Source: Candidatus Omnitrophota bacterium (GTDB taxonomy: Bacteria > Omnitrophota > Gorgyraeia > 2-01-FULL-45-10). From it: DNA of 64,000 nucleotides. Where the stretch lies: positions 3,748-67,747 of the forward strand of contig JAFGRN010000002.1 in the NCBI GenBank assembly GCA_016935115.1, read 5' to 3'. The notes under the pieces were generated by a model. The model was given only the letters and a program-made list of their open reading frames with translations, was not told the DNA's origin and did not search any database. The position numbers were made by a program, and so were the translations under genes. Within the stretch, counting starts at the first letter, position 1. Each line of letters begins with the position of its first letter. This document shows, piece by piece, positions 3,063-55,898 of the stretch.

Positions 3063-4451
3063 CTATGTCTGCCTAAATCCCCTGAAGGCTCTGTCCTTTT
3101 CGGAGTACAATTTATGGGCCTGCTTCAATACGATAGCCGTTTTGTTCTTAAAATAGTTTCTTATCAGCGTCGAATTCGCGTCAAACAAAGCTTTATGAAA
3201 CTCCTCATCGGTCATATCGGTAAAGTTTACCGAGAGGAGCTCCGAGTTCAGGTGCCTCTTCTCGTAAAAGTCCTCGCAATCTTTGAGCAGTCCTTTTTCG
3301 ATCGCATGGTAATAGAGAGGCGAGCCCGGATACGGCGTAACTGGCCGTATGGTGCGCATCTGCGCGCCGTCGTCGTACTTAAGCAGGAATTCGACTCCCT
3401 TATTCAGCGTCTCCTTCGTCTCCCCTATGTTGCCGAAGATGATATTAAATCCGGGGCTTATGCCTTCGGCAAGAGTGGCCTCTATACCTTTCTTTATCTG
3501 TTCAGTATTAAGGGCTTTATTCATGTTCCGCAGGATTCTGTCATCGAAGGCCTCTATGCCGTAGTTTATGAAAACGCATCCCGCGCGCTTCATCGTCTTG
3601 ATGATCCTGGATTCGGCGTAATTCAACCTTCCGTTGCATTCCCATTTTATATTCAAACCCTCGCGGATGAAATCCTCGCACAGGCTTATGGTCCTCTCGC
3701 GGGAGGACATAAGGAGATCGTCTATGAAGTCGATGTAATTAATGCCATAATCTTTCTTCAGAAGTTTTATCTCATCGATGATACTCTTGTTCGAACGGGG
3801 GCGGAAACCTTCCTCGATCCGGTAGCAGAAGTTACATTTAAACGGGCACCCGCGGCCGGATATCATCGCCATGACAAAATCGGTGCTTGTGGAATGAGGT
3901 ATACGTATCAGCCTGTAGTAGTCCATGGGAAAGAGCTTATACGCCGGCAGCGGCAGCGAATCTATATCCTTTATGACCGGCCTGCGCGGATTGACGGAGA
4001 CATTGGCTCCGTCTCTGAAAGCTATGCCTTTTACTCCGCCCAACCCCTTGTGATTCGAGACGGCATCAAGGAGCTCCACTATAGTATCCTCCCCCTCGCC
4101 GATAACGACAGCATCGGCCTGTGTCTTCTTCAGGAAAAACTCCGGTTCAGGGGATGGCCCGTGGCCGCCCAGAATATAGAAAGGCCTCTGTTTTGACCGG
4201 TTGATCGCCTCAGAGATCTTCAATAGCTTCCGGTACTGGTAATAATTCCCAACTATGCTCATGCCCACAACATCGAATTTATTCTTATCGAGATAAGCGG
4301 TCAGGTGGCTGTCCGGATAATGGAACTTATCCTGGCTGTAGACCACAACGTCATGGCCGGCCTTTTTAAGCATAGCGGCGATATACGCGGTTCCTATAGG
4401 AAAGTAATGCACAAATGACTCGTTATCGTACACCACCAATAAAATTCGCAC
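3063..4451 (-). CDS. cobalamin-binding (class B) radical SAM enzyme, about 460 aa
   Basis: N-terminal B12-binding-like Rossmann region (MRILLVVYD…ILGGHGPS…VVIGEGE) followed by CxxxCxxC (GCPFKCNFCY). GTG start at 4451 preceded by AAGAGGG. Paralogous to 15901..17355, with a shared TIRPVTPYPG motif. Confidence 0.8.
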   Translation of the reverse strand: MRILLVVYDNESFVHYFPIGTAYIAAMLKKAGHDVVVYSQDKFHYPDSHLTAYLDKNKFDVVGMSIVGNYYQYRKLLKISEAINRSKQRPFYILGGHGPSPEPEFFLKKTQADAVVIGEGEDTIVELLDAVSNHKGLGGVKGIAFRDGANVSVNPRRPVIKDIDSLPLPAYKLFPMDYYRLIRIPHSTSTDFVMAMISGRGCPFKCNFCYRIEEGFRPRSNKSIIDEIKLLKKDYGINYIDFIDDLLMSSRERTISLCEDFIREGLNIKWECNGRLNYAESRIIKTMKRAGCVFINYGIEAFDDRILRNMNKALNTEQIKKGIEATLAEGISPGFNIIFGNIGETKETLNKGVEFLLKYDDGAQMRTIRPVTPYPGSPLYYHAIEKGLLKDCEDFYEKRHLNSELLSVNFTDMTDEEFHKALFDANSTLIRNYFKNKTAIVLKQAHKLYSEKDRAFRGFRQT

Positions 4452-4506
4452 GATCTTCAGCCCTCTTTCTTTGTAAATCCATGCGCCCCGACGCCATCGA
4501 CAGGCA

Positions 4507-5325
4507 TCATCTGGCCCACGCTTTGCTTACGGGAAACACGCCGGTTCCCGATCCGACATTCCATTCCGCCATGGCTATGCCATGCTCTTTCAGTACAGCT
4601 CTGGTTTCAGTAAGGCCACCCGCCATAAAGTTGAATAGATTAGCCGTCGAAACTGCCTGAACAGAACCCTTATTGATCGCTTCTGCCATATGGTCAAACC
4701 TTCCCGCGCCGCCTGATGCTATTATAGGTACGGGCGATACGGCGGAAGCTTTTCTCAGGGTCTCGATATCATACCCCTGGCCGGTCCCATCCCTATTCAT
4801 GGACGTCAGATATATCTCGCCCGCGCCCAAATCGACAGCGCGCCTCACAGCCGCCTCCACCGAGAGGTCCGTGTCAAAAGACCCGTTGTCCGTAACCACA
4901 TGTTCCCGGCCGTCGATTATTTTGTAGTCAATTGACGCTATTATCGACTGGCCACCGAACGTCCTCACCAGTGACTTTACCAGTTCCGCGTCTTTTATGA
5001 TCGCGGTATTGACAACCAGCTTATCCGCACCGGCATCGAATAGCCTGAAAGCCACATCGACCGAATTCACGCCACCACCCGCCGCTAACGGCATGAAGCA
5101 ATTTTTCGTCAGCTCCGAAACATTCCTGGAGAACAACTCTGTATCTTTCCGGCCCCTCTCGACATTCAGCACGACCAGTTCGTCAATGGAAAAGGCTATA
5201 GAGTTAAAATCATAATGCTCTTTTATCCAGCTCAGGCCACCCACCTTCTGCAACCTGAAATTCCGGCTCAACATGAAGACGCCTCTATCCATCAGCAATG
5301 TAAATATCAATCTGTGTTTTAACAT
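4507..5325 (-). CDS. HisF-like cyclase subunit of the N-acetyl-sugar amidotransferase system (WbuZ-like)
   Basis: TIM-barrel HisF-like sequence (…VVLNVERG…DAGADKLVVNTA…) paired with the adjacent HisH-like and WbuX-like genes; overlaps the upstream gene by 7 nt. Confidence 0.7.
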   Translation of the reverse strand: MLKHRLIFTLLMDRGVFMLSRNFRLQKVGGLSWIKEHYDFNSIAFSIDELVVLNVERGRKDTELFSRNVSELTKNCFMPLAAGGGVNSVDVAFRLFDAGADKLVVNTAIIKDAELVKSLVRTFGGQSIIASIDYKIIDGREHVVTDNGSFDTDLSVEAAVRRAVDLGAGEIYLTSMNRDGTGQGYDIETLRKASAVSPVPIIASGGAGRFDHMAEAINKGSVQAVSTANLFNFMAGGLTETRAVLKEHGIAMAEWNVGSGTGVFPVSKAWAR

Positions 5326-5942
5326 ATTCTTTCGTAAGACGCGAAATTCTTAAGCACCCTCAGGCCGCTGTGCTGGCTCTTTTCGGGATGGAACTGGGTC
5401 CCGAATACGTTTTCGCGGCAAATGCTGCTGGCAAACCTCTCGCCATTATCGGTCCAGGAAGATATATCCGATTCGCAGCTGCAATTTAACACATAACTGT
5501 GCACAAAGTAGAAATCGGCGCGGGCTTCAAGACCTTCAAACAGGACATTGTCGCTCCGTGAAAAATACGCCGTATTAAATCCTATGTGGGGAACCTTGAA
5601 ACCTTCCTTCGGGCTGATCCTGCGTACGTGCCCGCGGATCCACCCGAAACCGTCTTTCGGGCCATCCTCATCCCCTGATTCGGCGAAGAGCTGCATGCCG
5701 AGACAGATGCCCAGTATCGGTACCTTTCTCATGAGCACGGCCGTATTGATCGGCTTTAGAAACCCAAGCCTCTCTATGTTCCCCATAGCCTTTGCGAAAG
5801 AACCGACGCCCGGTAATATCAACTTCTGGCTCCCGGCAACCTGTTCTGGAGAGCTGATCACCTCATTTTCAATTCCGAGATAAGCCAGGGCATTCTGAAT
5901 CGACTTTATATTACCCATGCCGTAATTAACGATCGAGATCAT
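5319..5942 (-). CDS. HisH-like glutamine amidotransferase subunit (WbuY-like)
   Basis: Class-I GATase motifs: MISIVNYGMGN start, catalytic GICLGMQ, and C-terminal FHPEKS. Confidence 0.75.
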   Translation of the reverse strand: MISIVNYGMGNIKSIQNALAYLGIENEVISSPEQVAGSQKLILPGVGSFAKAMGNIERLGFLKPINTAVLMRKVPILGICLGMQLFAESGDEDGPKDGFGWIRGHVRRISPKEGFKVPHIGFNTAYFSRSDNVLFEGLEARADFYFVHSYVLNCSCESDISSWTDNGERFASSICRENVFGTQFHPEKSQHSGLRVLKNFASYERIC

Positions 5943-5964
5943 GCCTGTGGCTTATCGGCCAAGT

Positions 5965-7077
5965 TTAATGGGGAGTAAATACCGGAACCCATCTGCCGTT
6001 TTCCTTCCTGAATATTTTTTTGTTCACGATACCATCAAGCGTGGCATCAAACTCTTCCTTTGTCATTCTGAAATACTTGAGATACTCCTCTATGTACGGT
6101 TCCGGATATTCGCCGTCATACCTCTTCACAAGCTCAACCGCCTGTTTGCGTGTTATGGAGCCGCGGCGTATATCTATCCCCACATCCTGGGAACACCTGC
6201 CGAACCCGTACTTCAGGTACATCAGGTACGTCTGAAGAACATAAAGACTTGTATCTGTCTGGGCAAAATTGCCATAGGTTCCAATACACCGTTCCGTTTC
6301 TTCCTGAAGACCATACTTCTCCTTCGCGAGTAAATAATGCTCATAGGGATCCCAATTTTCAAAATATGACCAGTGGGCAACTGCCGGCTTCAGCTTGTTA
6401 AGCTCCTCTCTGGACGGAAAGAGCCACCAATACAGCTCCTTCTCGGAAAATTTTCCTATCATCTCCTGCGGATTAAAACCACTCAGGTATATATCCATAC
6501 TATACTCCTGATCGTAACACGCTCCTTTCTCCTGTTTTAGCTTTGAAGTTCCCCCGTACTCAGTCTCCCCCTCCTCACCAAACATGACAAAAGGTATATC
6601 CAATAGAACGGCTATTTTAAATATCACGGTCTGCAGGGCAATCAGCCACTGAAAATACCCCTGGCCCCGTTTTATAAAATACTCCCTATCAATTACCCTG
6701 CCCACTTCAGGGTTAGGTGTTACGTGTATATGGTCGTACCCGCACTTGATAAAATTCTCCAGGTTCTTCTTCCCGATCTCAAACTCAAGCGGGGGCCTGA
6801 CGGTAACCCCCAATGTACGCATTCCCATTTTCTCCTTCATCATATATGCAACGTATGAACTGTCCTTGCCGCCGCTGACCGGAAGGATACAATCAAATTT
6901 TGAATTAGAACGATTTCTGTACTTATCGCATAACTCCTCTAAGTACTTCCAGCGCGTTTTCCAGTCTACCCCGGCCTTCTTCTCTTCCGCCCAGCAACAG
7001 GCATTACAGACCCCGTCTTTATTAAATGTTATCCTTGGCCTGGTTTCCGGCATCAAGCATCGAGTACAATACTTCAT
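5965..7077 (-). CDS. N-acetyl sugar amidotransferase (WbuX/PseA/WbpG family, PP-loop ATP pyrophosphatase)
   Basis: N-terminal Zn-ribbon (CTRC…CNAC) and PP-loop SGGKDSSY; the family is known to form acetamidino groups on amino sugars together with HisH/HisF-like partners. Confidence 0.75.
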   Translation of the reverse strand: MKYCTRCLMPETRPRITFNKDGVCNACCWAEEKKAGVDWKTRWKYLEELCDKYRNRSNSKFDCILPVSGGKDSSYVAYMMKEKMGMRTLGVTVRPPLEFEIGKKNLENFIKCGYDHIHVTPNPEVGRVIDREYFIKRGQGYFQWLIALQTVIFKIAVLLDIPFVMFGEEGETEYGGTSKLKQEKGACYDQEYSMDIYLSGFNPQEMIGKFSEKELYWWLFPSREELNKLKPAVAHWSYFENWDPYEHYLLAKEKYGLQEETERCIGTYGNFAQTDTSLYVLQTYLMYLKYGFGRCSQDVGIDIRRGSITRKQAVELVKRYDGEYPEPYIEEYLKYFRMTKEEFDATLDGIVNKKIFRKENGRWVPVFTPH

Positions 7078-7784
7078 CGGATCGATCCTCCTCTTTTCAT
7101 TAGTAACTCCGCAAGTTTCCAGTCCAACTTATCGTCTATATCTACCGACCGCTCCCTGGGCATCACGTACGCGTATGTATGATCGCCGAACCATCCTCTC
7201 CTCTTCCTGAGATAATCGGTATATGCGACGTAAACCGCTCCGTTCAGCCTGTAAAGAGACGGCAGTTCCTGCTTATTCTTGTTCTCGGACTCAAGCCTGA
7301 CAAAATCTTTCATGCATCTGTCTTTCGGCAGGGTATTCGTCCAGTACGGATGATGCTCCGTTTCACATACTGAAACGACCGCCCGGGCATTCTTCAGGAA
7401 TAATTCCCTGATGGCATTATCTATGTCCGACGGCAGTCTTAAAGGGGACGTCGGCTGTAATAGCACTACGACGTCATATTTTGCTCCTTCTTGGAAAACC
7501 CGGCCAAGCGCATGGTCGATAACATCTATTGTCTTCGCGCTGTCCGTCGCCAGCTTTCTCGGCCTCAAAAACGGAACACATGCCCCGTGCCTCTTTGACA
7601 TCCGCGCGATGAATCTGCTGTCTGTGCTCACCAGCACTTCATCCAGGTAACGGCTCTTCTTTGCCTGCTCTATGGCATGCACGGTCAACGGCTTACCGCA
7701 AAGATCGCGCGCATTCTTTCCGGGGAGCCTCCTGGATCCGCTCCTCGCCGGTATTACCCCTATTATCCTCTTGCCTTTGAACAT
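7074..7784 (-). CDS. CMP-nonulosonate synthetase (acylneuraminate cytidylyltransferase family, LegF/NeuA-like)
   Basis: N-terminal IGVIPARSGSRRLPGKN motif typical of CMP-sugar cytidylyltransferases; ATGA overlap with the upstream gene. Confidence 0.7.
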   Translation of the reverse strand: MFKGKRIIGVIPARSGSRRLPGKNARDLCGKPLTVHAIEQAKKSRYLDEVLVSTDSRFIARMSKRHGACVPFLRPRKLATDSAKTIDVIDHALGRVFQEGAKYDVVVLLQPTSPLRLPSDIDNAIRELFLKNARAVVSVCETEHHPYWTNTLPKDRCMKDFVRLESENKNKQELPSLYRLNGAVYVAYTDYLRKRRGWFGDHTYAYVMPRERSVDIDDKLDWKLAELLMKRGGSIR

Positions 7785-7789
7785 ATTGC

Positions 7790-8860
7790 CTATATCCCCA
7801 ATTGTTTCAGGCTGTCTTTATACTCCTCCCACTGGCCTATATCAAACCATCCGCTGAAGATTGTATATACGCTCACCTTGTCCTTCTTCGCCACCGTTTC
7901 TATCAGCTCGTTTATATCCATCTTTTTGTTATCCGGAATGTACGACAAAACCCTCGGCTCAATAACATAGACGCCCGTGTTGATGATAACATCGTGCACC
8001 GGCTTCTCTACCATCTTCTTAAGCTTTCCATCCGATACTTCCAGGACGCCGAACGGTATCTTCACTTCATTGTGGCAGCCGACTATTGTTATCGCGGCAT
8101 CGTACTGTGAATGCCACTTCAGGAGTTGCGCAAAGTCCGCGGCAAGCAGTGAATCGCAATTGGTGACGAAGAATGTTTCCTTCAATTTCTCTCTCAATAA
8201 TGAAAGGCTTCCTATGGTGCCAAGATAATTTTTCTCTTCGACCCAATTGAGTTTATAGGAAGAAAAATCGTTCTCCTGCAGAAATATCTTTATATACTCC
8301 TTTTTATAATTCAACGTATAGTTAAAGTTGTGAAAGCCGTGCTTATAAAACTTCTCCATTATAAGCTCAATGACGGTCTTATCTCCTATGGGAATCAGCG
8401 GCTTGGGGAGTATCTTGGTGAATGGGTCCAGCCGTAATCCCTTACCACCGGCCATTATCACTACGGGGTTCGATTTGAGCGCGGCCTGTAATGGAACGAC
8501 ATCTTTATCAAAAATATCGATCCATCGGATCATGTCTTCTATGACACCATCTCTATTGACAATGGGAATCTGCTCAAGCTTGTCGTTGAACATGATCTCT
8601 TTCACATGGTACATAAGATTATCCATGTCGCTATCCACCTTCACAAAATCCCTGCGCATCAATTTACTGATCCCGTCTTTAAAAGCGCACCCGTGAATGA
8701 TCCCGCGACGGATATCGCCATCGGTGACGGTTCCCACCAGTTTATTCCCTTCCTCGACAACGAAGAGTATCCGTTCCGCGGTATAATCAAGTTTTTGCAT
8801 AGCCTCTTTTATGCTCATATCAGCAGAAACCAGAATAGACTGCAATTTTACACTGTCCAT
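7790..8860 (-). CDS. CBS-domain-containing sugar-phosphate nucleotidyltransferase (PtmE-like)
   Basis: Tandem CBS region followed by the nucleotidyltransferase motif VVIMAGGKGLRLDPFTKILPKPLI. The track start at 8884 is a GTG inside the upstream gene; the ATG at 8860 has the Shine-Dalgarno sequence AAGGGGA 8 nt upstream. Confidence 0.65.
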   Translation of the reverse strand: MDSVKLQSILVSADMSIKEAMQKLDYTAERILFVVEEGNKLVGTVTDGDIRRGIIHGCAFKDGISKLMRRDFVKVDSDMDNLMYHVKEIMFNDKLEQIPIVNRDGVIEDMIRWIDIFDKDVVPLQAALKSNPVVIMAGGKGLRLDPFTKILPKPLIPIGDKTVIELIMEKFYKHGFHNFNYTLNYKKEYIKIFLQENDFSSYKLNWVEEKNYLGTIGSLSLLREKLKETFFVTNCDSLLAADFAQLLKWHSQYDAAITIVGCHNEVKIPFGVLEVSDGKLKKMVEKPVHDVIINTGVYVIEPRVLSYIPDNKKMDINELIETVAKKDKVSVYTIFSGWFDIGQWEEYKDSLKQLGI

Positions 8861-8873
8861 GGACTTTATCCCC

Positions 8874-10052
8874 TTATTTACCACTGATCCTTAACGGAAT
8901 ATCATAAAAACTTTTTTTGGTCCATTTTTCAAACTTATGTTTCTTAAGTATCGTCCATATTTTCAACGATGCGTTTCTCCCCTCATACGAATTTTTAACG
9001 TTCCTGAGACTATTCTGAAACTTCGCCGAATACAGCTCTTTCAGAGCCCTTACTATATCGGATCTCAAGGGACGGCAATCAATAACACTTCTTGACTTGA
9101 TCCTCCCTCTTTGACGGCTGCCTATATTGATAGTTCCCACTCTGAAGCTCGGCGCCTCCATTATACCGCTGGAGGAATTTCCCACAACGGCGTCCACAAT
9201 TCTCATCGCCGACAGATAATTAAGGCGCCCCATAGACGTAAACGCTTCGGCCCTGTCGGGTCTCATGGAAACATATTCATCTATCATACGATTAACTATT
9301 TTTCCGCCGCTGTCCGCATTTGCCTTGGTGAATATCAAATGCGTACTGTTAAGTCCGTCAAGTGCGCTGAGCAGGTTTTTAAATTGCCATCCCGCGCTTC
9401 CATCCTCCAGTGTAGCCGGATGAAAGGTAATCAACAGGTTACGCCTGTCAAAGTTTATCCTCAGTTTCTTTTTCAACTGATCTCTGGTCAGAAAGGGCAT
9501 GTCTTTTAGGCCATCCAGTCCCGGCGCGCCTACGTTAAATACGCATTCGGGCGACTCTCCAAGCTGTATCACTCTTCTTCTGTACTCCTCGGTAGCGGTG
9601 AAATGCAGCTGGCTCATCTTGGTTATGGAATGGCGAAATGCATCATCTATAACTCCTTCTGTCAACTCTCCCCCGTGTATATGCGCTACCGGTATGCAGG
9701 CAACATGAGCGGCGGCAACAGCACCGAATATTTCAAATCTGTCACCCAGGACAACCACTACATCCGGCTTCATCTCCTCATAAGCGGCGGCAAAACCGGA
9801 TATTGCCATAGCCATTGATCCGGAAATACCGACAGCAGTATCGGATATCAAATTAATATCTACCTTTCTATCAATGCAAAAACTATCTTTTTCGATCTCC
9901 TTATACGTAAACCCGAATTCTTTTTTGAGATGCGCCCCGGTAACTGCTAATTGCAGCTTTAGATCCCCGTCATTTTTTATCTTCTCAAGAAACGGCCTCA
10001 GCAACCCGTATTCAGCTCTTGATCCTGTAACAACGAAGATTTTTCTTTTCAT
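8874..10052 (-). CDS. UDP-N-acetylglucosamine 2-epimerase (hydrolysing), NeuC/LegG family
   Basis: MKRKIFVVTGSRAEYGLL… N-terminus and overall length are typical of NeuC-type hydrolysing 2-epimerases. Confidence 0.75.
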   Translation of the reverse strand: MKRKIFVVTGSRAEYGLLRPFLEKIKNDGDLKLQLAVTGAHLKKEFGFTYKEIEKDSFCIDRKVDINLISDTAVGISGSMAMAISGFAAAYEEMKPDVVVVLGDRFEIFGAVAAAHVACIPVAHIHGGELTEGVIDDAFRHSITKMSQLHFTATEEYRRRVIQLGESPECVFNVGAPGLDGLKDMPFLTRDQLKKKLRINFDRRNLLITFHPATLEDGSAGWQFKNLLSALDGLNSTHLIFTKANADSGGKIVNRMIDEYVSMRPDRAEAFTSMGRLNYLSAMRIVDAVVGNSSSGIMEAPSFRVGTINIGSRQRGRIKSRSVIDCRPLRSDIVRALKELYSAKFQNSLRNVKNSYEGRNASLKIWTILKKHKFEKWTKKSFYDIPLRISGK

Positions 10053-11056
10053 AGTATTATGAATTCATCTTTTTTGTAAGTTCTTTTTGCCCGCCTGCCT
10101 ATAACCGAATCCCATTTTATAGGGCTCATCCCATAGGCGGGACGTTTTGTGGTAATATTAGCCTCGAAAAATTCTTCGCCTTTCCCTATGTGGCGGGCAG
10201 CCACGATACTTTTTCGTACAATATCTCTATTTTTTAGCTCTGCAGCGAGGGGCCTTTTGATACCGTCTCCGAGGCCTTTTTCCACGTTGCGCACAGCGCT
10301 GACCATTTCATTAAACTCGCGTGGTTCCAGCGATGCCCGGTGATCCGGCCCCCTCATATTTTTATCAAGAGTAAAATGCTTTTCGATAACCGTCGCTCCG
10401 AGCGCCACGGCCGCTATTGCCATCTCCGTGCCGGGCGTATGATCAGAATACCCCACATTCACTCCCAGGACTTTTTTCATAGTCAGCATAGCATTTAGGT
10501 TTGCATTTTCAAAAGGCGCGGGATATGCCGTGGTGCATTGCATAATGGTAATATCATCTTTTCGGGTGCCGCAGGATACTAAAATCTTTATCGCCTCTCT
10601 GACTTCATCAAGATCCGACATGCCGGTAGACAACAGGATCTTCCTCTTCAAGGCTCCTGCTTTTCTAAGATACGGCACATTATCAATCTCGCCGGAAGGT
10701 ATCTTGAGGGTGCGAAGCCCGAGCCGCGATAAAAAATTCAGGCTTTCTATGTCAAAAGCGCTTGACATGAACTCAATGCGCATTTTTTTGCAGTGAGCTT
10801 GCAACTTAATAAAGGCGCCTTTATTAAGCTCCAATTTTTTCAGCATTTGAAATTGTGACCGAAAACCCTTGGCGGCTCTCTTCTGATATTCGGCTTGCGG
10901 CGCGCTTTTCGTGGCAATTGCCCCGGCGATAAATGTTTGAAATTTTATACCGTCCGCGCCGGATTTCGCTGCAGCATATACCATCTTCCTGGCAGCTCCC
11001 AAGCTACCGTTATGATTAACACCCGCCTCAGCTATGATAAAGGTCTTATTTGCCAT
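10049..11056 (-). CDS. N-acetylneuraminate-synthase-family nonulosonate synthase (NeuB/LegI-like)
   Basis: KTFIIAEAGVNHNGSLG…GADGIKFQTF motif. The track N-terminus (11155) runs into the upstream gene; the ATG at 11056 (MANKTF…) with GGAGG just upstream is the likely start. Confidence 0.75.
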   Translation of the reverse strand: MANKTFIIAEAGVNHNGSLGAARKMVYAAAKSGADGIKFQTFIAGAIATKSAPQAEYQKRAAKGFRSQFQMLKKLELNKGAFIKLQAHCKKMRIEFMSSAFDIESLNFLSRLGLRTLKIPSGEIDNVPYLRKAGALKRKILLSTGMSDLDEVREAIKILVSCGTRKDDITIMQCTTAYPAPFENANLNAMLTMKKVLGVNVGYSDHTPGTEMAIAAVALGATVIEKHFTLDKNMRGPDHRASLEPREFNEMVSAVRNVEKGLGDGIKRPLAAELKNRDIVRKSIVAARHIGKGEEFFEANITTKRPAYGMSPIKWDSVIGRRAKRTYKKDEFIIL

Positions 11057-21377: not shown

Positions 21378-21378
21378 G

Positions 21379-24195: not shown

Positions 24196-24208
24196 ACTCG
24201 CTCCGACG

Positions 24209-25881: not shown

Positions 25882-25884
25882 CGA

Positions 25885-27117: not shown

Positions 27118-27118
27118 C

Positions 27119-32472: not shown

Positions 32473-32489
32473 TTTCTCCTCACAAGATT

Positions 32490-32984: not shown

Positions 32985-33007
32985 TTTTAATCTCCTATTT
33001 AGGAATG

Positions 33008-33055: not shown

Positions 33056-33108
33056 GCAGATTATTTTACTATCATAACACTATACCTATCAATCACTTAG
33101 TTATAAAA

Positions 33109-34479: not shown

Positions 34480-34495
34480 AGTGTTGTCCCGTATA

Positions 34496-39230: not shown

Positions 39231-39246
39231 CTTCCCTTTCTCACTG

Positions 39247-40389: not shown

Positions 40390-40408
40390 CTGTCCTGAAC
40401 CTCTATAA

Positions 40409-43034: not shown

Positions 43035-43050
43035 GATATCCTCGCCGGAG

Positions 43051-43614: not shown

Positions 43615-43618
43615 AGCT

Positions 43619-44884: not shown

Positions 44885-44891
44885 AATTGTC

Positions 44892-45926: not shown

Positions 45927-45927
45927 A

Positions 45928-47307: not shown

Positions 47308-47365
47308 TATAATTGTATGTTTAGTGGTAAGGCGGGTAGATCGTGAGGAAACTGAAGAATAAGGA

Positions 47366-49381: not shown

Positions 49382-50916
49382 TAGTCCGCCTTAGCGTAAT
49401 CCAGCCGCGGCATTAATTCCACCGCGAGATTCTTTAATATCTTAACGTCGTATATCTGCGTCCAGTGGCGACGATCTTCGGGCAATGACCAGATGTAGCC
49501 ATTTATATCCTCCGCCCGGAGCCTGAACAACCTGCCCTTTTCCGAATCGTATACGTTTATATATGCGTCTACCTTCTCTCCGATGCGGTACTTCCTGTCG
49601 GTCAGGTGACCGCCGGCATATTCAAAGCGCTTATTGAGGGCGCTCGTCACTATCGGCCGATGGAAGAGCAGTCTGTATACACACATCGGAACCCATCCTT
49701 CGGATAAGAACTCTATATTACTCACAGGCCCGTACTTACTGTATTGATTACCGGAGAAATATAAGGTCCTATCCTCTTTATACTCCCGCAGGGCATCATT
49801 ATCCTTCATCGTCAGGATCACTTTTTGCTGATGCAAGCTCCAGCGCTTCCAATGGTCGGAGATCCCGAAGATGGCAAAGATAAGAATAATGCATACCGCG
49901 GCCTTGAGCTTCTTCGGCAGAGGAATTGATATTAAGAGATATGTAACCAATAATGATCCGAAGATCGTCACCCTGTTACCCAGGCCGAAACAGACCTGCG
50001 GATACCGGCCGGTGAACGCGTACATGAGAAAAGATAGAGCCGTCAACATAACCAGGCAGGCGCCCAGCCGCGAATTATAAACGACATTACAGCGCGTTAT
50101 CACCCTATAGCAGACAACCGAAATTATTAAACATAATATGACCGACTGCGCGGACAGCTGGGAAAAAGCGTAGTATACCTTGAGCCACATCGACGGGCCC
50201 AGCGCGGCGTCGGTGAACGTCAATACTTGCAGCGCGTACTGTTTGATGATGCCGGAAACGCTGACCGCCTCAAGAATCCTGGGATGCCCCGCGCTCCGTA
50301 TGGCCGTTAAATAGATGAAGTAAGAGGCATATATTATGTTGGGGACTATGATAACCGCGGCTTTCTTAAAATTTTTGCCGAGGCAGAAGAGCGCAAAGAG
50401 CGCTACAGCTATGGGCGTACTGCCGTATGATATAAATGAGGCCGCAAGCGCCGACAGGAACGCGAAGAAAAGCTTATCGCGATGCGCCAGATAGAAGGCG
50501 TAGAGATACAGGGCAAATGACAGGGTGAGATACTGGTTCATGAACATATACACAGTGGAATCGTGCGAAGGGAAGAATACAAATATGAAAGATGCCAGGA
50601 CGGCGAGCGATTCGTCCATATAGATCCTAAGGAACTGCGCTATCATGTACAGCGCCAGGATGATATAGGCGATCTTTACCGCGTTCACGGCGGCCGCATT
50701 ATCAAAGCTGAAGAAGTAATACGGGAGGTAGTGGCTGTAATACATCACCGGCGTGTCCGCGTAATAGGGACTGTTTACGGGTATCAGTATATTTTTGAGG
50801 CCCGTGATCTTCGAGCTTGTGACGGCATCGAAGTCGTCGGAGAATAGCCCCGTGTTTATGACAAGATAGGCCGTCAATATGAAGAACAACAGATACATCA
50901 GCTGTATTTTTTTCAT
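49381..50916 (-). CDS. polytopic membrane protein, putative GT-C-fold glycosyltransferase or polymerase
   Basis: About 10-12 predicted hydrophobic helices, an acidic SDDFD motif after the first helix (resembling the GT-C first-loop motif), and a soluble C-terminal domain of about 130 aa. Confidence 0.45.
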   Translation of the reverse strand: MKKIQLMYLLFFILTAYLVINTGLFSDDFDAVTSSKITGLKNILIPVNSPYYADTPVMYYSHYLPYYFFSFDNAAAVNAVKIAYIILALYMIAQFLRIYMDESLAVLASFIFVFFPSHDSTVYMFMNQYLTLSFALYLYAFYLAHRDKLFFAFLSALAASFISYGSTPIAVALFALFCLGKNFKKAAVIIVPNIIYASYFIYLTAIRSAGHPRILEAVSVSGIIKQYALQVLTFTDAALGPSMWLKVYYAFSQLSAQSVILCLIISVVCYRVITRCNVVYNSRLGACLVMLTALSFLMYAFTGRYPQVCFGLGNRVTIFGSLLVTYLLISIPLPKKLKAAVCIILIFAIFGISDHWKRWSLHQQKVILTMKDNDALREYKEDRTLYFSGNQYSKYGPVSNIEFLSEGWVPMCVYRLLFHRPIVTSALNKRFEYAGGHLTDRKYRIGEKVDAYINVYDSEKGRLFRLRAEDINGYIWSLPEDRRHWTQIYDVKILKNLAVELMPRLDYAKAD

Positions 50917-50933
50917 ATTTTAAAACCCTGCCG

Positions 50934-52505
50934 TCAATCCTGCCTGCCGCGGGTGATCAGGTTCCTCAAAAAAGGAAATGCGTGACAGATACTGGTCACG
51001 GGATCCGCGGTAAGATACAGGAATTTCATGATCCTGACCGGATTATAACCATGGCTCCTGACGATCATGAACAGAAAGTTCTTTGCGTTCATGATGGATC
51101 CGTAAAATGTCAACAAAGGCATCGCGCACCTGACCGGCAGGCTATTCTCGCGCCTGACAAGAAATCGCACGAACGCCGCGGGAATGTGCGGGGTTATGAA
51201 TATGATATTGTTAAGAAATTTCTTATCGCCGCGCGACTCGATGGTCGCCTGCGTCTTGTAAAGATCGCACTCCGTTATCACGCCCTCTTTAAGGGCCCGC
51301 GCCGTGATCTCGGTGCCGGGATAAAACCTGAAGCCGTATAATTCGAGAAGAAACGGTTTCGGCAGGGATGCGAGCGTTTCGACGGTCTCAACTATGTCGT
51401 TCCGGAATTCATACGGATTATCGAGCATGACATCGATGATCGGCATCATGCGAAGGCCGCTGAGCCTGCGCGAGGTCTCGACGAACGTCGATATCTTCAC
51501 GGGCCTTTTATAGACTTCGCTCAGGACGCGATAGCTTCCCGACTGCAAGCCTATGCCGGCCGCTATGACGGATAGCTGGGACAGAAGCCGGTACTTGTCA
51601 TCATTGGCGCTGCCCGGTATCATGCGAAACATTAGCGGCAGTTTGATATCACGAAGGTAACGCGGCACGAAATCCTGGAACCACGACAGCGGGCGCGATG
51701 TGAAGCTGTCGTCGTGAAAATTGATAAAACGGATGGTCGGGCGCGAGGAGACGGCTGCAATCAGCTCCTTCATGACATGATCTACGCTGCGCAGGCGCAC
51801 TCTCTTCCACTCATTGCCATAAAGGTTCTTATTGATGTTGTCAGCGCAATAAGTGCATTCCAGGGGACAGCCGCGGGAAGTCGTTATGTCGTACCCGTTA
51901 CCGTTATAACGCTGAAACCTGCCGACATCGGCCGCGCGTATCGGGGCAAACCGCCCTGCGCCGTAAAAGAACGCGGATTCATCCATAACCGGCAGGACGG
52001 CGAGAGAGTCCATGTCGCGGAATAATGGAGCCGCGGCACGGGGCCGGGCGGAACCGGCTGCGGTTACGATGCCCGGCACGTCCATGTTTTCGAGCGAGCC
52101 CTTCTGCTCATAGCATTTCAGGAACTCTGCAAATGATATCTCCCCCTCGCCCAGGCAGACCGCGTCAAAAAATTCCAGGGAGCTTTCGGGAAATGCCGTA
52201 ACGTGGATGCCGCCGCCGGCCAGTACAACACGGGGATCGATTCTTTTAATATCGCCGCATATGCGCCTTACCAGAGCCGACTGGTAGGACATGAAGCTGA
52301 TCCCCACCACATCCGGGTTATTCTTCCTCAGGAACGATGGGAGAGCCTCCGCGAACTTCAGATATCGCGACTCTTCCGTAATCTCGCTTCGGAGATTCGG
52401 ATATACCAGAATTGCGCGATGGCCCGCTTTCAATGTTTCGTAGAAAACGTATCGTATCCCGAAGGTGCACAGGTTTTCCTGCATTGATATGAGTATAACG
52501 TTCAT
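50934..52505 (-). CDS. cobalamin-binding (class B) radical SAM enzyme, 523 aa
   Basis: MNVILISMQE… B12-binding-like N-terminus and SRGCPLECTYC. Confidence 0.8.
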   Translation of the reverse strand: MNVILISMQENLCTFGIRYVFYETLKAGHRAILVYPNLRSEITEESRYLKFAEALPSFLRKNNPDVVGISFMSYQSALVRRICGDIKRIDPRVVLAGGGIHVTAFPESSLEFFDAVCLGEGEISFAEFLKCYEQKGSLENMDVPGIVTAAGSARPRAAAPLFRDMDSLAVLPVMDESAFFYGAGRFAPIRAADVGRFQRYNGNGYDITTSRGCPLECTYCADNINKNLYGNEWKRVRLRSVDHVMKELIAAVSSRPTIRFINFHDDSFTSRPLSWFQDFVPRYLRDIKLPLMFRMIPGSANDDKYRLLSQLSVIAAGIGLQSGSYRVLSEVYKRPVKISTFVETSRRLSGLRMMPIIDVMLDNPYEFRNDIVETVETLASLPKPFLLELYGFRFYPGTEITARALKEGVITECDLYKTQATIESRGDKKFLNNIIFITPHIPAAFVRFLVRRENSLPVRCAMPLLTFYGSIMNAKNFLFMIVRSHGYNPVRIMKFLYLTADPVTSICHAFPFLRNLITRGRQD

Positions 52506-52527
52506 CTCTGTGGCATTCTCGCTTTCA

Positions 52528-53295
52528 TTACGGCCTTATATCTTTTCTCCCCACGGCGAGTATCGAAACACCGAAAGGAAAGCCGCCGAAGATCTTTATC
52601 GCCGCCAGCTCGCATGACATGGCGAATTTAAGGAGTCCGTTAACGACAGGAGGCGGAGCGCCCAGTTCATCCGACGCTTTCTTCGACCGGAAGAGACCGG
52701 CGCGCTGAAGCATTGACGATAATAATAACGGCAGAAAACTTATGCTGTTAAAATATGTGATCCTCGCGACATTGAACCCCGCGGCCTTCATAATATCGCG
52801 GATCTCCGGTACCGTATACCTGCGCTTGCCCATACAGATCCTGTCATTGTCGCGATACAGGAACTTGTAAGCAGGTTCATTTATTACTACAAACCCTCCG
52901 GGCCTGACCAGGCTAAACGCTTCTTTCAAAACCCGCGTATCGTCCAGGATCCATTCGTGGTACAGGACGTTGAAGAACGTCACTATATCGAATTGCTCGC
53001 CGGCAAATGTCTTATCGAGATCATTTGCCGAGCCTATCCTGATCCTGGCGGAGGGATGTTTCCTGAGGCAGATGCCGGCCGCGTGAGCCGAGATCTCAAG
53101 CCCGGTTACGGCGCCATATTTTCTAAGGGTCTCCAGCATTCCGCCCGTACCGCATCCGACATCCAGGATGCCGGCCTGATGGCAGGGTCCGCGCCTTATG
53201 CTGTCCATATAATACTCTACGAGTTTTCTGCGGCCGGTGTGATACCAGTGGGTATCCTCTACGCGAGCCAGATCATCATACGCCTGATTATCCAA
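52528..53295 (-). CDS. class I SAM-dependent methyltransferase
   Basis: Motif I ILDVGCGTGGM, 255 aa. Confidence 0.65.
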   Translation of the reverse strand: MDNQAYDDLARVEDTHWYHTGRRKLVEYYMDSIRRGPCHQAGILDVGCGTGGMLETLRKYGAVTGLEISAHAAGICLRKHPSARIRIGSANDLDKTFAGEQFDIVTFFNVLYHEWILDDTRVLKEAFSLVRPGGFVVINEPAYKFLYRDNDRICMGKRRYTVPEIRDIMKAAGFNVARITYFNSISFLPLLLSSMLQRAGLFRSKKASDELGAPPPVVNGLLKFAMSCELAAIKIFGGFPFGVSILAVGRKDIRP

Positions 53296-53297
53296 TA

Positions 53298-55898
53298 TTA
53301 AACCCTCTGAGCGGCATAATGTTTCGCCGCGTCCCTCGGAAGCATCGATATCATCTCCCTGTCCGCCGCCAGGCCCTTCAACAGCTCTTTATACATCCTC
53401 ACCATAAGATCGTTTCCGCCATAGTATGGATCGGGATGCGTGACCACGGTAACACATCCCATGTCGTCTTTGATGCGCGATATTTTAGACTTCCAGAAAG
53501 CGTTGAGATCCTCCGGTTTCACCCCGCATTGGACCGGAAATTCGTAAGGCAACGTCGTCGGCAGCTCCACAAGGGAGCCTATCATGTAGGGAAATACTGA
53601 ACAGCATCCTCCGACGCCGGCGGGCGATATGTAATCCACATCCAGGACGCTGCAATCGTAAGAAAAATAATCCTGCAATACTCTGAAGAGGCATCCGCTC
53701 CGCAGCCAGGATGGCGACCTGAAACCCGCCATCTTATAAGCCCCGATGATATCCTTGCACGCGTCCATTCTTCTTCTTATATGCGCTTCGCTTAAAAACG
53801 CCAATTTGTTATCGTGATTATACCCGTGGAGGCCTATCTCGAATCCGTTCCGCGCCAGCCAATCCAGCACGGAATAGTCTATCCTGTAAAGCCTGGGGAC
53901 GACATTCCACGACGACCTGAAACCATACTCCATCTCCGCTTCGGCGATCGCCTTCACCCACTTCCAGTTGTTGCCATTTTCTATGTCGTGGGTAAGTATG
54001 AGGGCGCACTTTTTATCTCCCGGCCATGATACTCTCCCCGTATACCTGAGGCAATCTTCCGGAAGGCTCTTAGAGGACGCTCTACGCAACCGTTCCAGGG
54101 AGCCTTCGTAGGGCCACAACGGAAATGACGAGGATGGCGGAGAACCGCGCCTGAAGAGTTTCTGCCCATAGTACCTCACGGGAGCCGGGATCTTCTGGTA
54201 GTTAAAAGGGACGGATGTGTATAAAGGCCTTTTGAGATCCGCGTACTTTTCATATATAACATTCTCAAAAATCTTTCCGGCATACAAATTGTAAAGGGAG
54301 TCGACAGGGCCGGACCCGGAAGCTTCCCCGCGAAGATCGTAATAACCGGATAGTTTGTCCAGATCATCCTTAACGGCATCGTATCCGGGCGAACTACCCT
54401 TCCTGACCCTGCCTATGGCCACTTTCAACGCCACGTAGAAGAACCTCATATTCAGGAAGAAAACAAGCCGCGCCATATTCCACATCTTCGCGGGCGAAAG
54501 ATACCACTTCCCGGACATCTTTATAACATTGCCTCCGGCGAATGAGGATTTAAGAATCCGCTTTATGCCCTTCACGCTGAGATAGAACGACAGATTAGCG
54601 TACATAGTGTCAAACATAAGCCCATACCGGTCATTGCCCTTCGGGACATACGGCAGGTCATCGCCTTCCCACATATACTGGACCGCAAAATTTTCCCAAT
54701 CCTTCTTAATGACCACTTCACCCCGGCTCTTCAGCATCTCGTAGACTGGCGTGCCGGGATAAGGCGTGAGAGTATTGAATCTCGTGCTTGCAAGCGGCAT
54801 ATCGTTTGCCAGTTTTATGGCGTCCCGGCGGTCCCTGGCGGTCTCTCCCGGAAGGCCGAAGATGATGGTAGTGGCGGCGGCTATGCCCTTATCGTTCGTC
54901 ATCCTCACCGCGTCCACGACCTGCTTTACCGTCTCGCCTTTCCCTATCAGGCTCATGAGAGACTCCGAGCCGGTCTCCATCCCAAAGGCTATCATCCTGA
55001 AATTCGCCGCTTTCGCTTTATCGAGGATGGCTTCGCTGATATTATCCGCCCTCATGGAACCGTGAAAAGAGACATCTCCGGGAAAGCCCGCGGCTATTAT
55101 TGAATCCAGGATCTCCATAAAGCGCCGGCTATGGCCCGCGATGTTGTCGTCCATCAGCCATATGGTCTTCTGTCCGTACTTTTCTACGAGCGCCTTTATC
55201 TCGGAGACGACCCTCCCGACGCTGAAATACCTGTACCTCTTGCCCGATATGCTGCGGGATGAGCAGAATATGCAGTTATAAGGACAGCCCCTCGAAGTGA
55301 ATATGCCGCCGAATGAGGGGTATCGGTCCTTATCCTTCTCAAAAAGATGATATGGAAACGGCGGTATGTCGTCGAGATTTTCTATGACAGGCCTGTCGGG
55401 ATTATGGACAAACCCGTTCTTGCCTTTGAAGGATATGCCGGGAATATTTTTTGGATCATCGCCGCTCATAACCAGCCGCGACAGCTCCTCGAACGTCTTC
55501 TCCCCCTCACCCCTCACGACCATATCTATTCCGGGGCTGCTGAGAGCCTCTTCGGGAAGCACTGTGGGATGTATCCCCCCAGCCACCACCAGGCATTCCG
55601 GATCCACGCCCTTTATCTTCTCGCCGAGCTCGTAGGCTCTCTTGGAATTTATGGTCAATACGCTAAGCCCGACAATACGCGGCTTCTCCAGGGAGAGGAT
55701 AATGCCGGGCAGGCCCCTATCCTTAATGAAATCCAGCTGTTCATCTATTATGCGGACCGGGCCTATGCCGCGCGCGCCCAGAAATCCCGCGAGGGCGCCG
55801 AGGCTTGTGGGGAACGTGGTATTTATGACCGCATTTACGATCTTGTTCTGCGACGAGGAATTGATGGCCGGGTTAATCAGCAGGATATTTTTGCCCAT
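53298..55898 (-). CDS. fusion protein of a cobalamin-binding radical SAM enzyme and a polysaccharide deacetylase (CE4/NodB-like) domain, 866 aa
   Basis: B12-binding-like N-terminus, SRGCPYNCIFC, then a C-terminal region of about 240 aa with deacetylase-like motifs (LTHDIEN…GLHGYNHD). Confidence 0.7.
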   Translation of the reverse strand: MGKNILLINPAINSSSQNKIVNAVINTTFPTSLGALAGFLGARGIGPVRIIDEQLDFIKDRGLPGIILSLEKPRIVGLSVLTINSKRAYELGEKIKGVDPECLVVAGGIHPTVLPEEALSSPGIDMVVRGEGEKTFEELSRLVMSGDDPKNIPGISFKGKNGFVHNPDRPVIENLDDIPPFPYHLFEKDKDRYPSFGGIFTSRGCPYNCIFCSSRSISGKRYRYFSVGRVVSEIKALVEKYGQKTIWLMDDNIAGHSRRFMEILDSIIAAGFPGDVSFHGSMRADNISEAILDKAKAANFRMIAFGMETGSESLMSLIGKGETVKQVVDAVRMTNDKGIAAATTIIFGLPGETARDRRDAIKLANDMPLASTRFNTLTPYPGTPVYEMLKSRGEVVIKKDWENFAVQYMWEGDDLPYVPKGNDRYGLMFDTMYANLSFYLSVKGIKRILKSSFAGGNVIKMSGKWYLSPAKMWNMARLVFFLNMRFFYVALKVAIGRVRKGSSPGYDAVKDDLDKLSGYYDLRGEASGSGPVDSLYNLYAGKIFENVIYEKYADLKRPLYTSVPFNYQKIPAPVRYYGQKLFRRGSPPSSSFPLWPYEGSLERLRRASSKSLPEDCLRYTGRVSWPGDKKCALILTHDIENGNNWKWVKAIAEAEMEYGFRSSWNVVPRLYRIDYSVLDWLARNGFEIGLHGYNHDNKLAFLSEAHIRRRMDACKDIIGAYKMAGFRSPSWLRSGCLFRVLQDYFSYDCSVLDVDYISPAGVGGCCSVFPYMIGSLVELPTTLPYEFPVQCGVKPEDLNAFWKSKISRIKDDMGCVTVVTHPDPYYGGNDLMVRMYKELLKGLAADREMISMLPRDAAKHYAAQRV

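Follow-up and report, generated by a model that had tools for sequence, protein, structure and literature searches.

The window analysed here, a stretch of 64,000 nucleotides from contig JAFGRN010000002.1 of a Candidatus Omnitrophota bacterium (assembly GCA_016935115.1), carries a cluster of sugar genes in which twelve genes encode radical S-adenosylmethionine (SAM) enzymes, nine of them with a B12-binding domain. We consider it probable that these twelve enzymes form a dedicated cobalamin- and radical-dependent tailoring of nucleotide-activated nonulosonic acids (NulOs) and heptose-like sugars, chiefly by C-methylation; any particular modification site is less likely than this general statement. 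The reading is built on domains, sequence motifs, gene coupling, synteny across phyla, domain fusions, and structural similarity, from which we infer the substrates, the regiochemistry, a possible iteration of the reaction, and the final glycan. Comparative genomics and structure prediction support the original prediction, made from the DNA sequence of the window, that the radical-SAM genes are functionally part of the sugar pathways and that their products modify the sugars. Gene coupling, conserved synteny, two domain fusions, and a TokK-like structure all point this way.

The twelve radical-SAM genes

The radical-SAM genes are distributed over most of the window:

3063..4451, minus strand: rB1, 462-residue B12-binding radical-SAM protein, which accompanies legionaminic acid (Leg) operons
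11759..13813, minus strand: rB2, 684-residue TokK/CysS-like cobalamin radical-SAM protein, predicted iterative C-methylase
15901..17355, minus strand: rB3, 484-residue B12-binding radical-SAM protein, 4-nt overlaps on both sides
19150..20211, minus strand: SPASM1, Twitch/SPASM radical-SAM protein with a BtrN-like cysteine pattern
22168..24195, minus strand: rB4, 675-residue TokK-like protein, between HisF_b and HisH_b
33109..34479 (longest reading frame from 34629), minus strand: rB5, B12-binding radical-SAM protein of 506 residues, or 456 residues from the 34479 start
34496..35983, minus strand: rB6, 495-residue B12-binding radical-SAM protein
37127..38092, minus strand: SPASM2, Twitch/SPASM radical-SAM protein
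38028..39269, minus strand: MiaB/RimO-like radical-SAM protein (UPF0004 and radical-SAM domains)
47366..49381, minus strand: rB7, 671-residue TokK-like cobalamin radical-SAM protein
50934..53295, minus strand: rB8, 523-residue B12 radical-SAM protein (50934..52505), and a class I methyltransferase
53298..55898, minus strand: rB9, 866-residue B12 radical-SAM protein with a C-terminal DUF2334/CE4 polysaccharide-deacetylase domain

Pfam finds the Radical_SAM domain (PF04055) in 12 of 12 proteins, above the gathering score in all nine of the B12 type, and each of the twelve contains one canonical CxxxCxxC motif. The B12-binding domain (PF02310) lies N-terminally in nine proteins. It exceeds the gathering score of 32.1 bits in rB1, rB3, rB5, rB6, rB8, and rB9, and stays below it in the three proteins of about 680 residues (28.3, 26.1, and 30.0 bits). 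The AlphaFold model of one of these, rB2, can be superposed on TokK with bound cobalamin over some 660 columns, the cobalamin domain included. With Pfam domains and CxxxCxxC motifs in all of them, the predicted composition of nine B12-binding, two SPASM, and one MiaB-like protein is thus borne out. If a background of 1-3% radical-SAM genes is assumed, finding 12 among 57 genes has, under a binomial model, a probability of 5e-13 to 1e-7.

Identities between the paralogues are 20-38% (rB1 and rB3 38%, the trio of about 680 residues 24-27%, the SPASM pair 27%), which rules out a recent tandem duplication; judged by their sequences, the paralogues are old. The start codons of two genes are uncertain. 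Their longest open reading frames (ORFs) begin at 34629 and 39269, while 34479 and 39230 had been given before, and the 34479 start fits the domain register better than 34629.

Coupling to sugar genes

All 57 genes counted between positions 3 and 63905 are co-directional on the minus strand, as are all family-matched ORFs of at least 150 residues in the 64-kb window, and the GC skew is negative in 31 of 32 intervals of 2 kb. The 56 complete genes are tightly packed: 52 of the 55 junctions between them are overlaps or spacers of at most 35 nt, and the only three longer ones measure 55, 124, and 134 nt. The gaps of 124 and 134 nt each hold one sigma-70-like promoter site on the minus strand and no terminator:

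33055-33027, minus strand: promoter-like site in the gap upstream of the pseudaminic acid (Pse)-type set
47307-47279, minus strand: promoter-like site in the gap upstream of the heptose-like set

Because these two long gaps contain promoter-like sites without a terminator, the cluster probably comprises at least three transcription units, in each of which radical-SAM and sugar genes are mixed. ATGA-type overlaps of 4 nt link the formyltransferase-like gene and rB2, LegB and rB3, rB3 and the gene of a 622-residue protein (unk622), SPASM1 and WbuX_b, as well as rB6 and a glycosyltransferase gene. Positions 6512-17574 are 100% identical to an independently assembled contig of SRR13394437 (11 kb).

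The TokK-like enzymes

C-methylation, which had been proposed for the B12-binding enzymes in general, finds a specific case in the three TokK-like enzymes rB2, rB4, and rB7, whereas the smaller six are about as close to non-methylating relatives as to methylases. A profile of 21 family members matches TokK (E=1e-82) and CysS (E=4e-73) in the PDB and no other structure better than 2e-4, and rB2 itself scores 130 bits against TokK and 102 bits against CysS. The identity of TokK and CysS to the trio is only 18-22%, but length, architecture, and motif are similar to those of TokK and ThnK (carbapenem side chain), CysS (cystobactamid alkoxy groups), and KedN5. The motif SCYVWN is common to rB2, TokK, and CysS, and W70 of rB2 aligns to W76 of TokK, a residue that we take to lie under the corrin. 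This tryptophan is invariant in the 21-sequence family alignment, rB4 and rB7 included.

The AlphaFold (AF2) model of rB2 has a mean predicted local distance difference test (pLDDT) value of 90.4 and a predicted template modelling (pTM) score of 0.88. In Foldseek it matches TokK (7kdx) with E=4e-38 and a template modelling (TM) score of 0.75-0.78 over about 660 columns and all three domains, followed by CysS (9n1c) with a TM score of 0.68-0.74. The next matches, MgmA, TsrM, and OxsB, reach TM scores of 0.38-0.49 (query-normalised). The model thus has the three-domain layout of cobalamin domain, radical-SAM barrel, and C-terminal domain, the last of which is aligned by structure but not by sequence searches. 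The best NCBIfam model for the trio is that of the KedN5 family (178, 161, and 122 bits, far below the 700-bit cut-off); in sequence terms the trio is a clade related to, but outside, the curated KedN5 subfamily. TokK, ThnK, and CysS are cobalamin-dependent and place several methyl groups in succession onto an sp3 carbon, and KedN5 has been assigned likewise. By sequence and modelled structure, rB2, rB4, and rB7 are predicted to be C-methylases as well, perhaps acting repeatedly.

The context differs from that of TokK-type pathways in that the window encodes no carrier-protein, nonribosomal peptide synthetase (NRPS), polyketide synthase (PKS), or beta-lactam genes and has the surroundings of a surface sugar. 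Therefore, the handle of the substrate would be something other than pantetheine, such as a nucleotide or a sugar. Unlike enzymes of antibiotic pathways, the TokK-like family of the window has members in many phyla of bacteria and archaea. GenK and GenD1 of gentamicin biosynthesis and Fom3 are also cobalamin radical-SAM enzymes that C-methylate an unactivated carbon of an amino sugar or small molecule. Their context is actinomycete antibiotic metabolism, whereas that in the window is NulO and heptose-like surface-glycan pathways.

Conserved neighbourhoods and domain fusions

Conservation of the gene neighbourhood, named as a check in the original prediction, is found for two enzyme families, since both the rB1 and the TokK-like proteins recur with NulO or other sugar genes across phyla. 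The loci were picked by similarity to the radical-SAM genes and not outward from NeuB.

The rB1 family contains 4744 proteins at E<=1e-20. The best 120 are 68-85% identical to rB1, 108 of these 120 also have 462 residues, and the named sources of the relatives are Nitrospirae, Bacillota, Omnitrophota, Parcubacteria, Dehalococcoidales, and Eremiobacterota. A metagenome scan yielded 80 loci with orthologues of 62-85% identity, and the counts are from those 43 that are 9 kb or longer. A NulO gene is present in 38 of these 43, with a cytidine monophosphate (CMP)-NulO cytidylyltransferase in 32, NeuB in 31, NeuC in 19, and NeuB and the cytidylyltransferase together in 26. A 20-kb neighbourhood is less than 1% of a typical genome, so that by reasoning, not computation, NeuB would be expected by chance in about 1% of the loci. 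The usual order is LegB-LegC-acetyltransferase-NeuB-NeuC-PtmE-cytidylyltransferase (LegF)-rB1. It had been stated that canonical loci are free of radical-SAM genes. In the Pse and Leg loci of model pathogens we indeed know of no radical-SAM, Twitch, or MiaB-like genes, but in environmental Leg operons B12 radical-SAM genes are common. In a Bacillota metagenome-assembled genome (MAG; GCA_040755295.1, locus L083, positions 130-17389) the rB1 orthologue (72%) is flanked by LegG and NeuB in a complete Leg operon, which adjoins three tandem flagellin genes. The locus also encodes a 706-residue glycosyltransferase, a short-chain dehydrogenase/reductase (SDR), and a TylF-type methyltransferase, and it resembles a flagellin glycosylation island in which one step is of the B12 radical-SAM type.

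Downstream of rB1 the order is conserved too. The gene of a PFTS-like protein of 644 residues starts 3 nt after rB1 and is followed by an ABC exporter gene, and the same tail of rB1, a PFTS-like protein of about 640-680 residues, and an ABC exporter is found in the window (1-4451) and in a Thermodesulfovibrionales MAG (L085, 8001-13343). The 644-residue protein has 38 detectable relatives (precomputed Pfam identifier PF27878). The top PDB matches of its AF2 model (pLDDT 89.7) in Foldseek are all enzymes of glycosyltransferase fold B (GT-B). Because the three-gene order recurs, it suggests that rB1, the GT-B transferase, and the exporter work as a unit.

Relatives of the family of about 680 residues occur in 487 species genomes of the GTDB collection. 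The best 80 loci are from bacteria (Desulfobacterales, Omnitrophota, Acidobacteriota, Nitrospinota, Planctomycetota, Elusimicrobiota, Pelagibacteraceae, and groups of the candidate phyla radiation) and archaea (Nitrosopumilus, Thermoplasmata, Methanosarcinales, Woesearchaeota, and Pacearchaeota). Among the 64 of these 80 loci that span at least 12 kb, 54 contain at least one homologue of a sugar gene of the window and 26 contain NulO genes. The TokK-like gene is often placed inside a Leg operon, for example in L009 and L014 in the order NeuB-rSAM-NeuC-PtmE-cytidylyltransferase, rSAM denoting the radical-SAM gene. Elsewhere, like rB4 of the window, it lies within a triad, WbuX-rSAM-HisH-HisF (L021 and L029), and archaea too have such arrangements. 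The TokK-like gene of these loci is often adjoined by a SPASM1-like gene.

Two domain fusions connect the enzymes directly with sugar chemistry. The protein P0037, 33% identical to rB7, joins a CTP_transf_3 domain to the B12-binding and radical-SAM domains, and its cluster also holds NeuB, two WbuX, HisH, and HisF. The two halves of the rB9 fusion are adjacent separate genes in a Parcubacteria MAG (L084, 5344-9023), in the order GT2 glycosyltransferase, polysaccharide deacetylase/DUF2334, B12 radical SAM, methyltransferase, and a 677-residue protein. Because this order mirrors window positions 47366-56863 (GT2, rB9 fusion, methyltransferase, rB8, the 511-residue protein, rB7), the deacetylase and radical-SAM pair is a recurring unit that is fused in the window.

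A cluster of four radical-SAM genes is present in a cultured alphaproteobacterium, on a plasmid of Azospirillum oryzae KACC 14407 (NZ_CP054615.1, 215000-256000; L167). They encode a TokK-like protein of 686 residues, two SPASM1-like proteins, and an 827-residue protein with an rB1-like N-terminus. The neighbours are a GmhA-like gene, an epimerase gene, two carbamoyltransferase genes, and methyltransferase genes; NulO genes are absent from the cluster, but genes of the heptose type are present. This strain is a possible experimental model.

The smaller B12-binding enzymes

The best NCBIfam models for rB1, rB3, rB5, rB6, rB8, and rB9 are BchE, HpnJ, the ladderane-lipid enzyme, and MJ_1487, with 95-156 bits. 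Methylase models (PhpK, MgmA/MJ_0865, and the RiPP C-methyltransferase, RiPP standing for ribosomally synthesised and post-translationally modified peptide) score in the same range as BchE and HpnJ, and NF033070 reaches 39-90 bits against a cut-off of 500 bits. BchE and HpnJ are B12 radical-SAM enzymes that do not methylate, and MgmA is a glutamine C-methylase.

Among solved structures, rB1 (77 bits) and rB6 (52 bits) match AprD4 best, whereas rB5 scores slightly higher with MgmA (45 bits) than with AprD4 (37 bits). AprD4 is the 1,2-diol dehydratase of apramycin biosynthesis and acts on an amino sugar; its domain shows that a B12-type fold can be free of cobalamin. The match to AprD4 covers the radical-SAM core only, whereas the proteins of the window keep strong B12-binding domains (68 bits for PF02310 in rB1). 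The only PDB match of rB8 is 4q37, a 128-residue fragment described as 'Radical SAM protein', via the N-terminal domain. rB9 matches MgmA (84 bits), TokK (61 bits), and, on residues 681-845, the deacetylase 3rxz.

Twitch/SPASM and MiaB-like enzymes

The SPASM domain (PF13186) scores 54.6 bits in the protein encoded at 19150-20211 and 51.8 bits in that at 37127-38092, and both have five C-terminal cysteines. The suggested likeness to BtrN proved apt, in that four C-terminal cysteines of SPASM1 (276, 294, 339, and 342) align without gaps to residues 169, 187, 232, and 235 of BtrN, and SPASM2 has the same 18/45/3 spacing. We take these BtrN residues to be the ligands of its single auxiliary cluster. 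As the four cysteines align to the cluster positions of BtrN, SPASM1 and SPASM2 are classed, by their sequences, as Twitch-type enzymes. SPASM1 resembles BtrN marginally in sequence (E=0.004), over no more than the C-terminal 69 residues, and the best NCBIfam matches of the SPASM proteins are unrelated maturases, all below cut-off. BtrN, the 2-deoxy-scyllo-inosamine dehydrogenase, shares the radical-SAM core and the C-terminal SPASM/Twitch domain with both proteins. Its substrate is an aminocyclitol, whereas that in the window would be a NulO or heptose derivative. Characterised Twitch relatives oxidise or epimerise sugar-like carbinols.

The MiaB-like protein combines UPF0004 (PF00919, 30.9 bits) with Radical_SAM (PF04055, 38.4 bits) and contains Cys24, Cys60, and Cys92 in addition to C160xxxC164xxC167. 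Pfam finds no TRAM domain in it, and its best family score is 141 against a cut-off of 314.7 bits.

Sugar-pathway and neighbouring genes

The remaining genes of the cluster, with the individually scored ones set below their group, are:

3..1116, minus strand: partial ABC exporter, transmembrane domain (PF00664 ABC_membrane, 61 bits), last cluster gene in the window
1125..3059, minus strand: PFTS-like 644-residue protein of GT-B fold, candidate glycosyltransferase, weak TIGR04417 match
4507..7077, minus strand: first acetamidino triad (a) of HisF-like and HisH-like proteins and WbuX amidotransferase (Pfam His_biosynth, GATase)
7074..11155, minus strand: Leg-type core of CMP-NulO cytidylyltransferase, PtmE-like CBS-nucleoside triphosphate (NTP) transferase, NeuC/LegG 2-epimerase, and NeuB/LegI-type synthase
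8874-10052, minus strand: NeuC-type hydrolysing 2-epimerase, 460.7 bits against a cut-off of 235.9 (NCBIfam)
10049-11155, minus strand: NeuB-type synthase (NeuB_NnaB), 467.7 bits against 399.65
11046..11762, minus strand: formyltransferase-like protein (PF00551), 4-nt overlap with rB2
13813..15904, minus strand: DegT aminotransferase (LegC-like) and LegB 4,6-dehydratase
14906-15904, minus strand: LegB (TIGR04180), 484.4 bits against 475
17352..19220, minus strand: 622-residue protein of unknown family, coupled to rB3
20208..24832, minus strand: second acetamidino triad, WbuX_b, HisF_b, and HisH_b, with rB4 inserted
24835..32984, minus strand: Pse-type set of PseI, methyltransferase, carbamoyltransferase, PseG-like protein, RmlD-like reductase, cytidylyltransferase, PseB, and helix-turn-helix regulator
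24835-25881, minus strand: PseI, 439.8 bits against 340.25
31495-32472, minus strand: PseB, 493.8 bits against 407.75
35980..37176, minus strand: TIGR04440-type glycosyltransferase, 136.7 bits against 70
39247..47231, minus strand: heptose-like set of two methyltransferases, CmcI-type methyltransferase, GHMP kinase, epimerases, RmlC-like protein, TylC3-type C-methyltransferase, SIS isomerase, and NTP transferase
49381..50916, minus strand: 511-residue protein of unknown family, coupled to a radical-SAM gene
55919..63905, minus strand: upstream sugar block of GT2, hexapeptide acetyltransferases, DegT, dehydratase/epimerase, GFO oxidoreductase, GNAT, polysaccharide deacetylase, and transglutaminase-like protein
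63906-64000, minus strand: partial upstream gene, translation ending ...GEYVGAILTQVKQRPLVIEKERINF

Leg, Pse, and heptose genes were called with the curated cut-offs of NCBIfam. The placement of the radical-SAM genes among Leg, Pse, and guanosine diphosphate (GDP)-heptose genes, as first described, holds for the first two pathways, in which LegB, NeuC, NeuB, PseB, and PseI are above cut-off, but all heptose genes remain below. GmhA scores 82 of 209 bits, HddA 143.5 of 600, and HddC 88.5 of 300, and GmhB was not found in the window; a GDP-heptose pathway is plausible as heptose-like at the domain level only. The candidates for LegC, PtmE, and LegF are Pfam-level matches (DegT, CBS-NTP transferase, and CTP_transf_3), as is the cytidylyltransferase of the Pse set, and the PseG-like protein scores 142 bits against a cut-off of 153.55. 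The formyltransferase-like gene occupies the place expected for LegH. PseC and PseH are not adjacent to the Pse set, DegT and hexapeptide acetyltransferase genes being located elsewhere in the cluster. Both WbuX proteins (TIGR03573) exceed the cut-off of 203 with 365 and 320 bits, and by analogy to WbuXYZ the WbuX/HisH/HisF triads would form acetamidino groups. At the Pfam level the inventory comprises two cytidylyltransferases, one carbamoyltransferase, five class I or CmcI-type methyltransferases, and the TylC3-type C-methyltransferase, together with aminotransferases, acetyltransferases, and two glycosyltransferases.

The window shares core genes and triads with the Pse and Leg pathways of Campylobacter jejuni and Helicobacter pylori (with their PseA and PtmG/PtmH tailoring) and with WbuXYZ/AglXYZ. 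It differs from the model loci in that LegH, PseC, and PseH do not occupy the positions usual for them and a radical-SAM gene splits HisF and HisH. The 622- and 511-residue proteins have no sequence match in Pfam, NCBIfam, or PDB. A homologue of the former (40%) adjoins a Leg cluster (L144), and one of the latter (46%) adjoins a TokK-like gene in an Omnitrophota locus (L003), in which the upstream block 55919..63905 is also syntenic. We take the tail of the partial gene at the right edge to resemble, by eye, the C-terminus of polyprenyl-phosphate glycosyltransferases of the GtrB/ArnC type, and the cluster runs on past this edge. No flagellin gene or Maf (DUF115) transferase gene is present in the window, and a flagellin-glycosylation island is not supported for it.

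Two side observations concern the DNA itself. The GC content is about 0.445 at 8001-10000 and 32001-34000 and 0.50-0.55 elsewhere, dips that would fit a mosaic island built from modules of different origin. Long ORFs of 293-382 residues on the plus strand (3060-4196, 19324-20472, 36806-37912, and 14879-15760) are antisense to well-supported genes and are probably non-coding shadow ORFs.

A possible pathway

The surface-glycan supercluster of about 63 kb would provide a CMP-Leg-type and a CMP-Pse-type NulO, with an acetamidino triad for each, and a heptose-like nucleotide sugar. Conventional enzymes would add acetamidino, formyl, carbamoyl, and methyl groups, and the radical-SAM enzymes would then modify C-H bonds beyond the reach of the conventional ones. 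The radical step would most likely take place at the stage of the nucleotide sugar or the free NulO; the cytidylyltransferase fusion and the usual place beside a cytidylyltransferase gene suggest an action at or near the CMP-sugar stage.

In rB2, rB4, and rB7 a 5'-deoxyadenosyl radical would generate a radical at the substrate carbon and methylcobalamin would donate the methyl group, possibly several times, so that an N-acyl, acetamidino, or O-methyl carbon or the sugar skeleton would be extended by at least one CH2. The first site of TokK is alpha to a carbonyl, and CysS acts on an O-methyl group. Analogous targets would be the alpha-carbon of an N-acetyl or acetamidino group or an O-methyl group, and either might fit because rB4 is inserted in an amidotransferase triad and five methyltransferases are present. 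The enzymes rB1 and rB3 could be accessory to the Leg pathway and perform a C-methylation, or a dehydration or rearrangement, and rB9 could couple de-N-acetylation with a radical step. Like BtrN, the two Twitch enzymes would oxidise or epimerise a sugar carbinol, and a methylthio group may be introduced by the MiaB-like enzyme. The GT-B and GT2 enzymes would transfer the product, and the ABC transporter would serve its export.

Alternative explanations

Several observations weigh against a tailoring of NulOs by C-methylation. None of the twelve radical-SAM proteins reaches an equivalog cut-off of NCBIfam. The smaller six B12 enzymes resemble, in sequence, the non-methylating BchE, HpnJ, and AprD4 about as well as they resemble methylases. 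TokK and CysS are known to act on substrates that bear pantetheine and not a nucleotide, and the substrate class can therefore not be transferred from these enzymes. No homologue of the MiaB-like gene occurs in the 80 genome loci. Only about 40% of the TokK-like loci have NulO genes within 10 kb, and in Sneathiella aquimaris (CP112881.1, L166) the TokK-like gene is outside a sugar cluster, on a mobile element, and followed by two SDR genes. The neighbourhood counts, finally, were obtained with window proteins as probes and single high-scoring-pair coverage filters, a procedure by which unrelated functions are missed. As a separate observation, the surroundings of the Sneathiella gene include plasmid-type RepA_C, NikA-like, and CbiA genes and the defence-type genes Piwi, DpnII-MboI, and Fic.

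It could be that the radical-SAM enzymes act in the glycan pathway but that most of them are not methylases. The proteins rB1, rB3, rB5, rB6, and rB8 would then perform deoxygenation or dehydration like AprD4, ring contraction or rearrangement like HpnJ or OxsB, or oxidation like BchE, and replace steps that depend on O2 or nicotinamide adenine dinucleotide (NAD) in an anaerobe. That AprD4 is the best PDB match of rB1 and rB6, that BchE and HpnJ are the best NCBIfam models, and that the cluster already has five conventional methyltransferases and a TylC3-type C-methyltransferase speak for this explanation. However, all such matches are far below the family cut-offs, the models of PhpK, MgmA/MJ_0865, and the RiPP C-methyltransferase score similarly, the AprD4 match is confined to the radical-SAM core whereas the B12 domain of rB1 is strong, and the explanation does not apply to the three TokK-like proteins. 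We regard it as rather unlikely.

The enzymes might instead act after assembly, on the glycan, a lipid carrier, or an acceptor protein and not on nucleotide sugars, which we judge to be improbable. The CE4/DUF2334 domain of rB9 belongs to a family that usually acts on polymers, the GT-B protein and the ABC exporter directly follow rB1 in the window and in L085, and lipid-linked cytoplasmic intermediates would be compatible with such an action. However, all twelve enzymes need SAM and a low-potential reductant, and nine probably cobalamin, which by general knowledge of the superfamily places them in the cytoplasm, and both the fusion of a TokK-like protein to a cytidylyltransferase and the place inside minimal Leg operons favour the monosaccharide or nucleotide stage. 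Very improbable, in our view, is an unrelated lipid, cofactor, or RiPP pathway that is merely co-located in a hypervariable island, or a mis-assembly. Some NCBIfam matches are to ladderane-lipid B12 radical-SAM, RiPP, and cofactor maturase models, and the GC content varies from 0.45 to 0.55 along the window, as in a mosaic island. Against this, the 57 genes include no precursor peptide, lipid, or cofactor genes, radical-SAM and sugar genes overlap by 4 nt or are fused at the domain level, and the association recurs in dozens of unrelated genomes. We reject a RiPP, lipid, or cofactor pathway, given that such genes are absent from the window and that the synteny is with sugar genes. The second assembly, which reproduces 11 kb exactly, speaks against a mis-assembly.

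Implications

NulOs decorate flagella, S-layers, capsules, and lipopolysaccharides and shape recognition by phages and the immune system. To our knowledge, the known NulO modifications are all made by conventional transferases. As had been supposed, this seems not to be a described system, and searches of an open-access library found no report that links radical-SAM enzymes to legionaminic or pseudaminic acid. The nearest item concerns phase-variable radical-SAM genes of the MoaA/PqqE type in Campylobacter fetus, CFT03427_1545 and _1558, which have poly-G tracts and are located among methyltransferase, SDR, and formyltransferase-domain genes (PMC6321876). Radical-SAM genes of the Twitch/SPASM type may thus be present in the glycan loci of a cultured pathogen as well.

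CMP-ulosonic acids with a ten-carbon marker (m/z 311.10 versus 297.09) have been described with no enzyme assigned, and Magnetospirillum gryphiswaldense contains CMP-sugars of m/z 679.198, 693.214, and 707.230, a +CH2 series; the ten-carbon acids are also reported, at low level, in Methanococcus (PMC8157484; bioRxiv 10.64898/2026.04.20.719630). We put forward, tentatively and as a possibility open to considerable doubt, that the rB1-type and TokK-like enzymes are a widespread and hitherto unrecognised layer of NulO tailoring in bacteria and archaea, which extends CMP-Leg or CMP-Pse by one or more carbon units, to C-methylated or carbon-extended ulosonic acids, and is the source of the C10 ulosonic acids. 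Alternatively, these could be formed from a seven-carbon precursor by condensation with phosphoenolpyruvate.

Tailoring by class B radical-SAM enzymes and nonulosonic acid pathways are each known; their combination appears to be new and reaches well beyond the window. If nucleotide-activated sugars are indeed modified by these enzymes, NulO chemistry would gain C-methyl, extended-carbon, deoxy, or thio derivatives, and the ten-carbon ulosonic acids seen by mass spectrometry would have a testable source. The sequential methylation of the TokK/CysS type would extend from antibiotic pathways to primary cell-surface biosynthesis. Thousands of genes in environmental genomes that are annotated as nothing more than 'radical SAM protein' would obtain a function, and the diversity of surface glycans in anaerobic communities would be tied to the availability of cobalamin.

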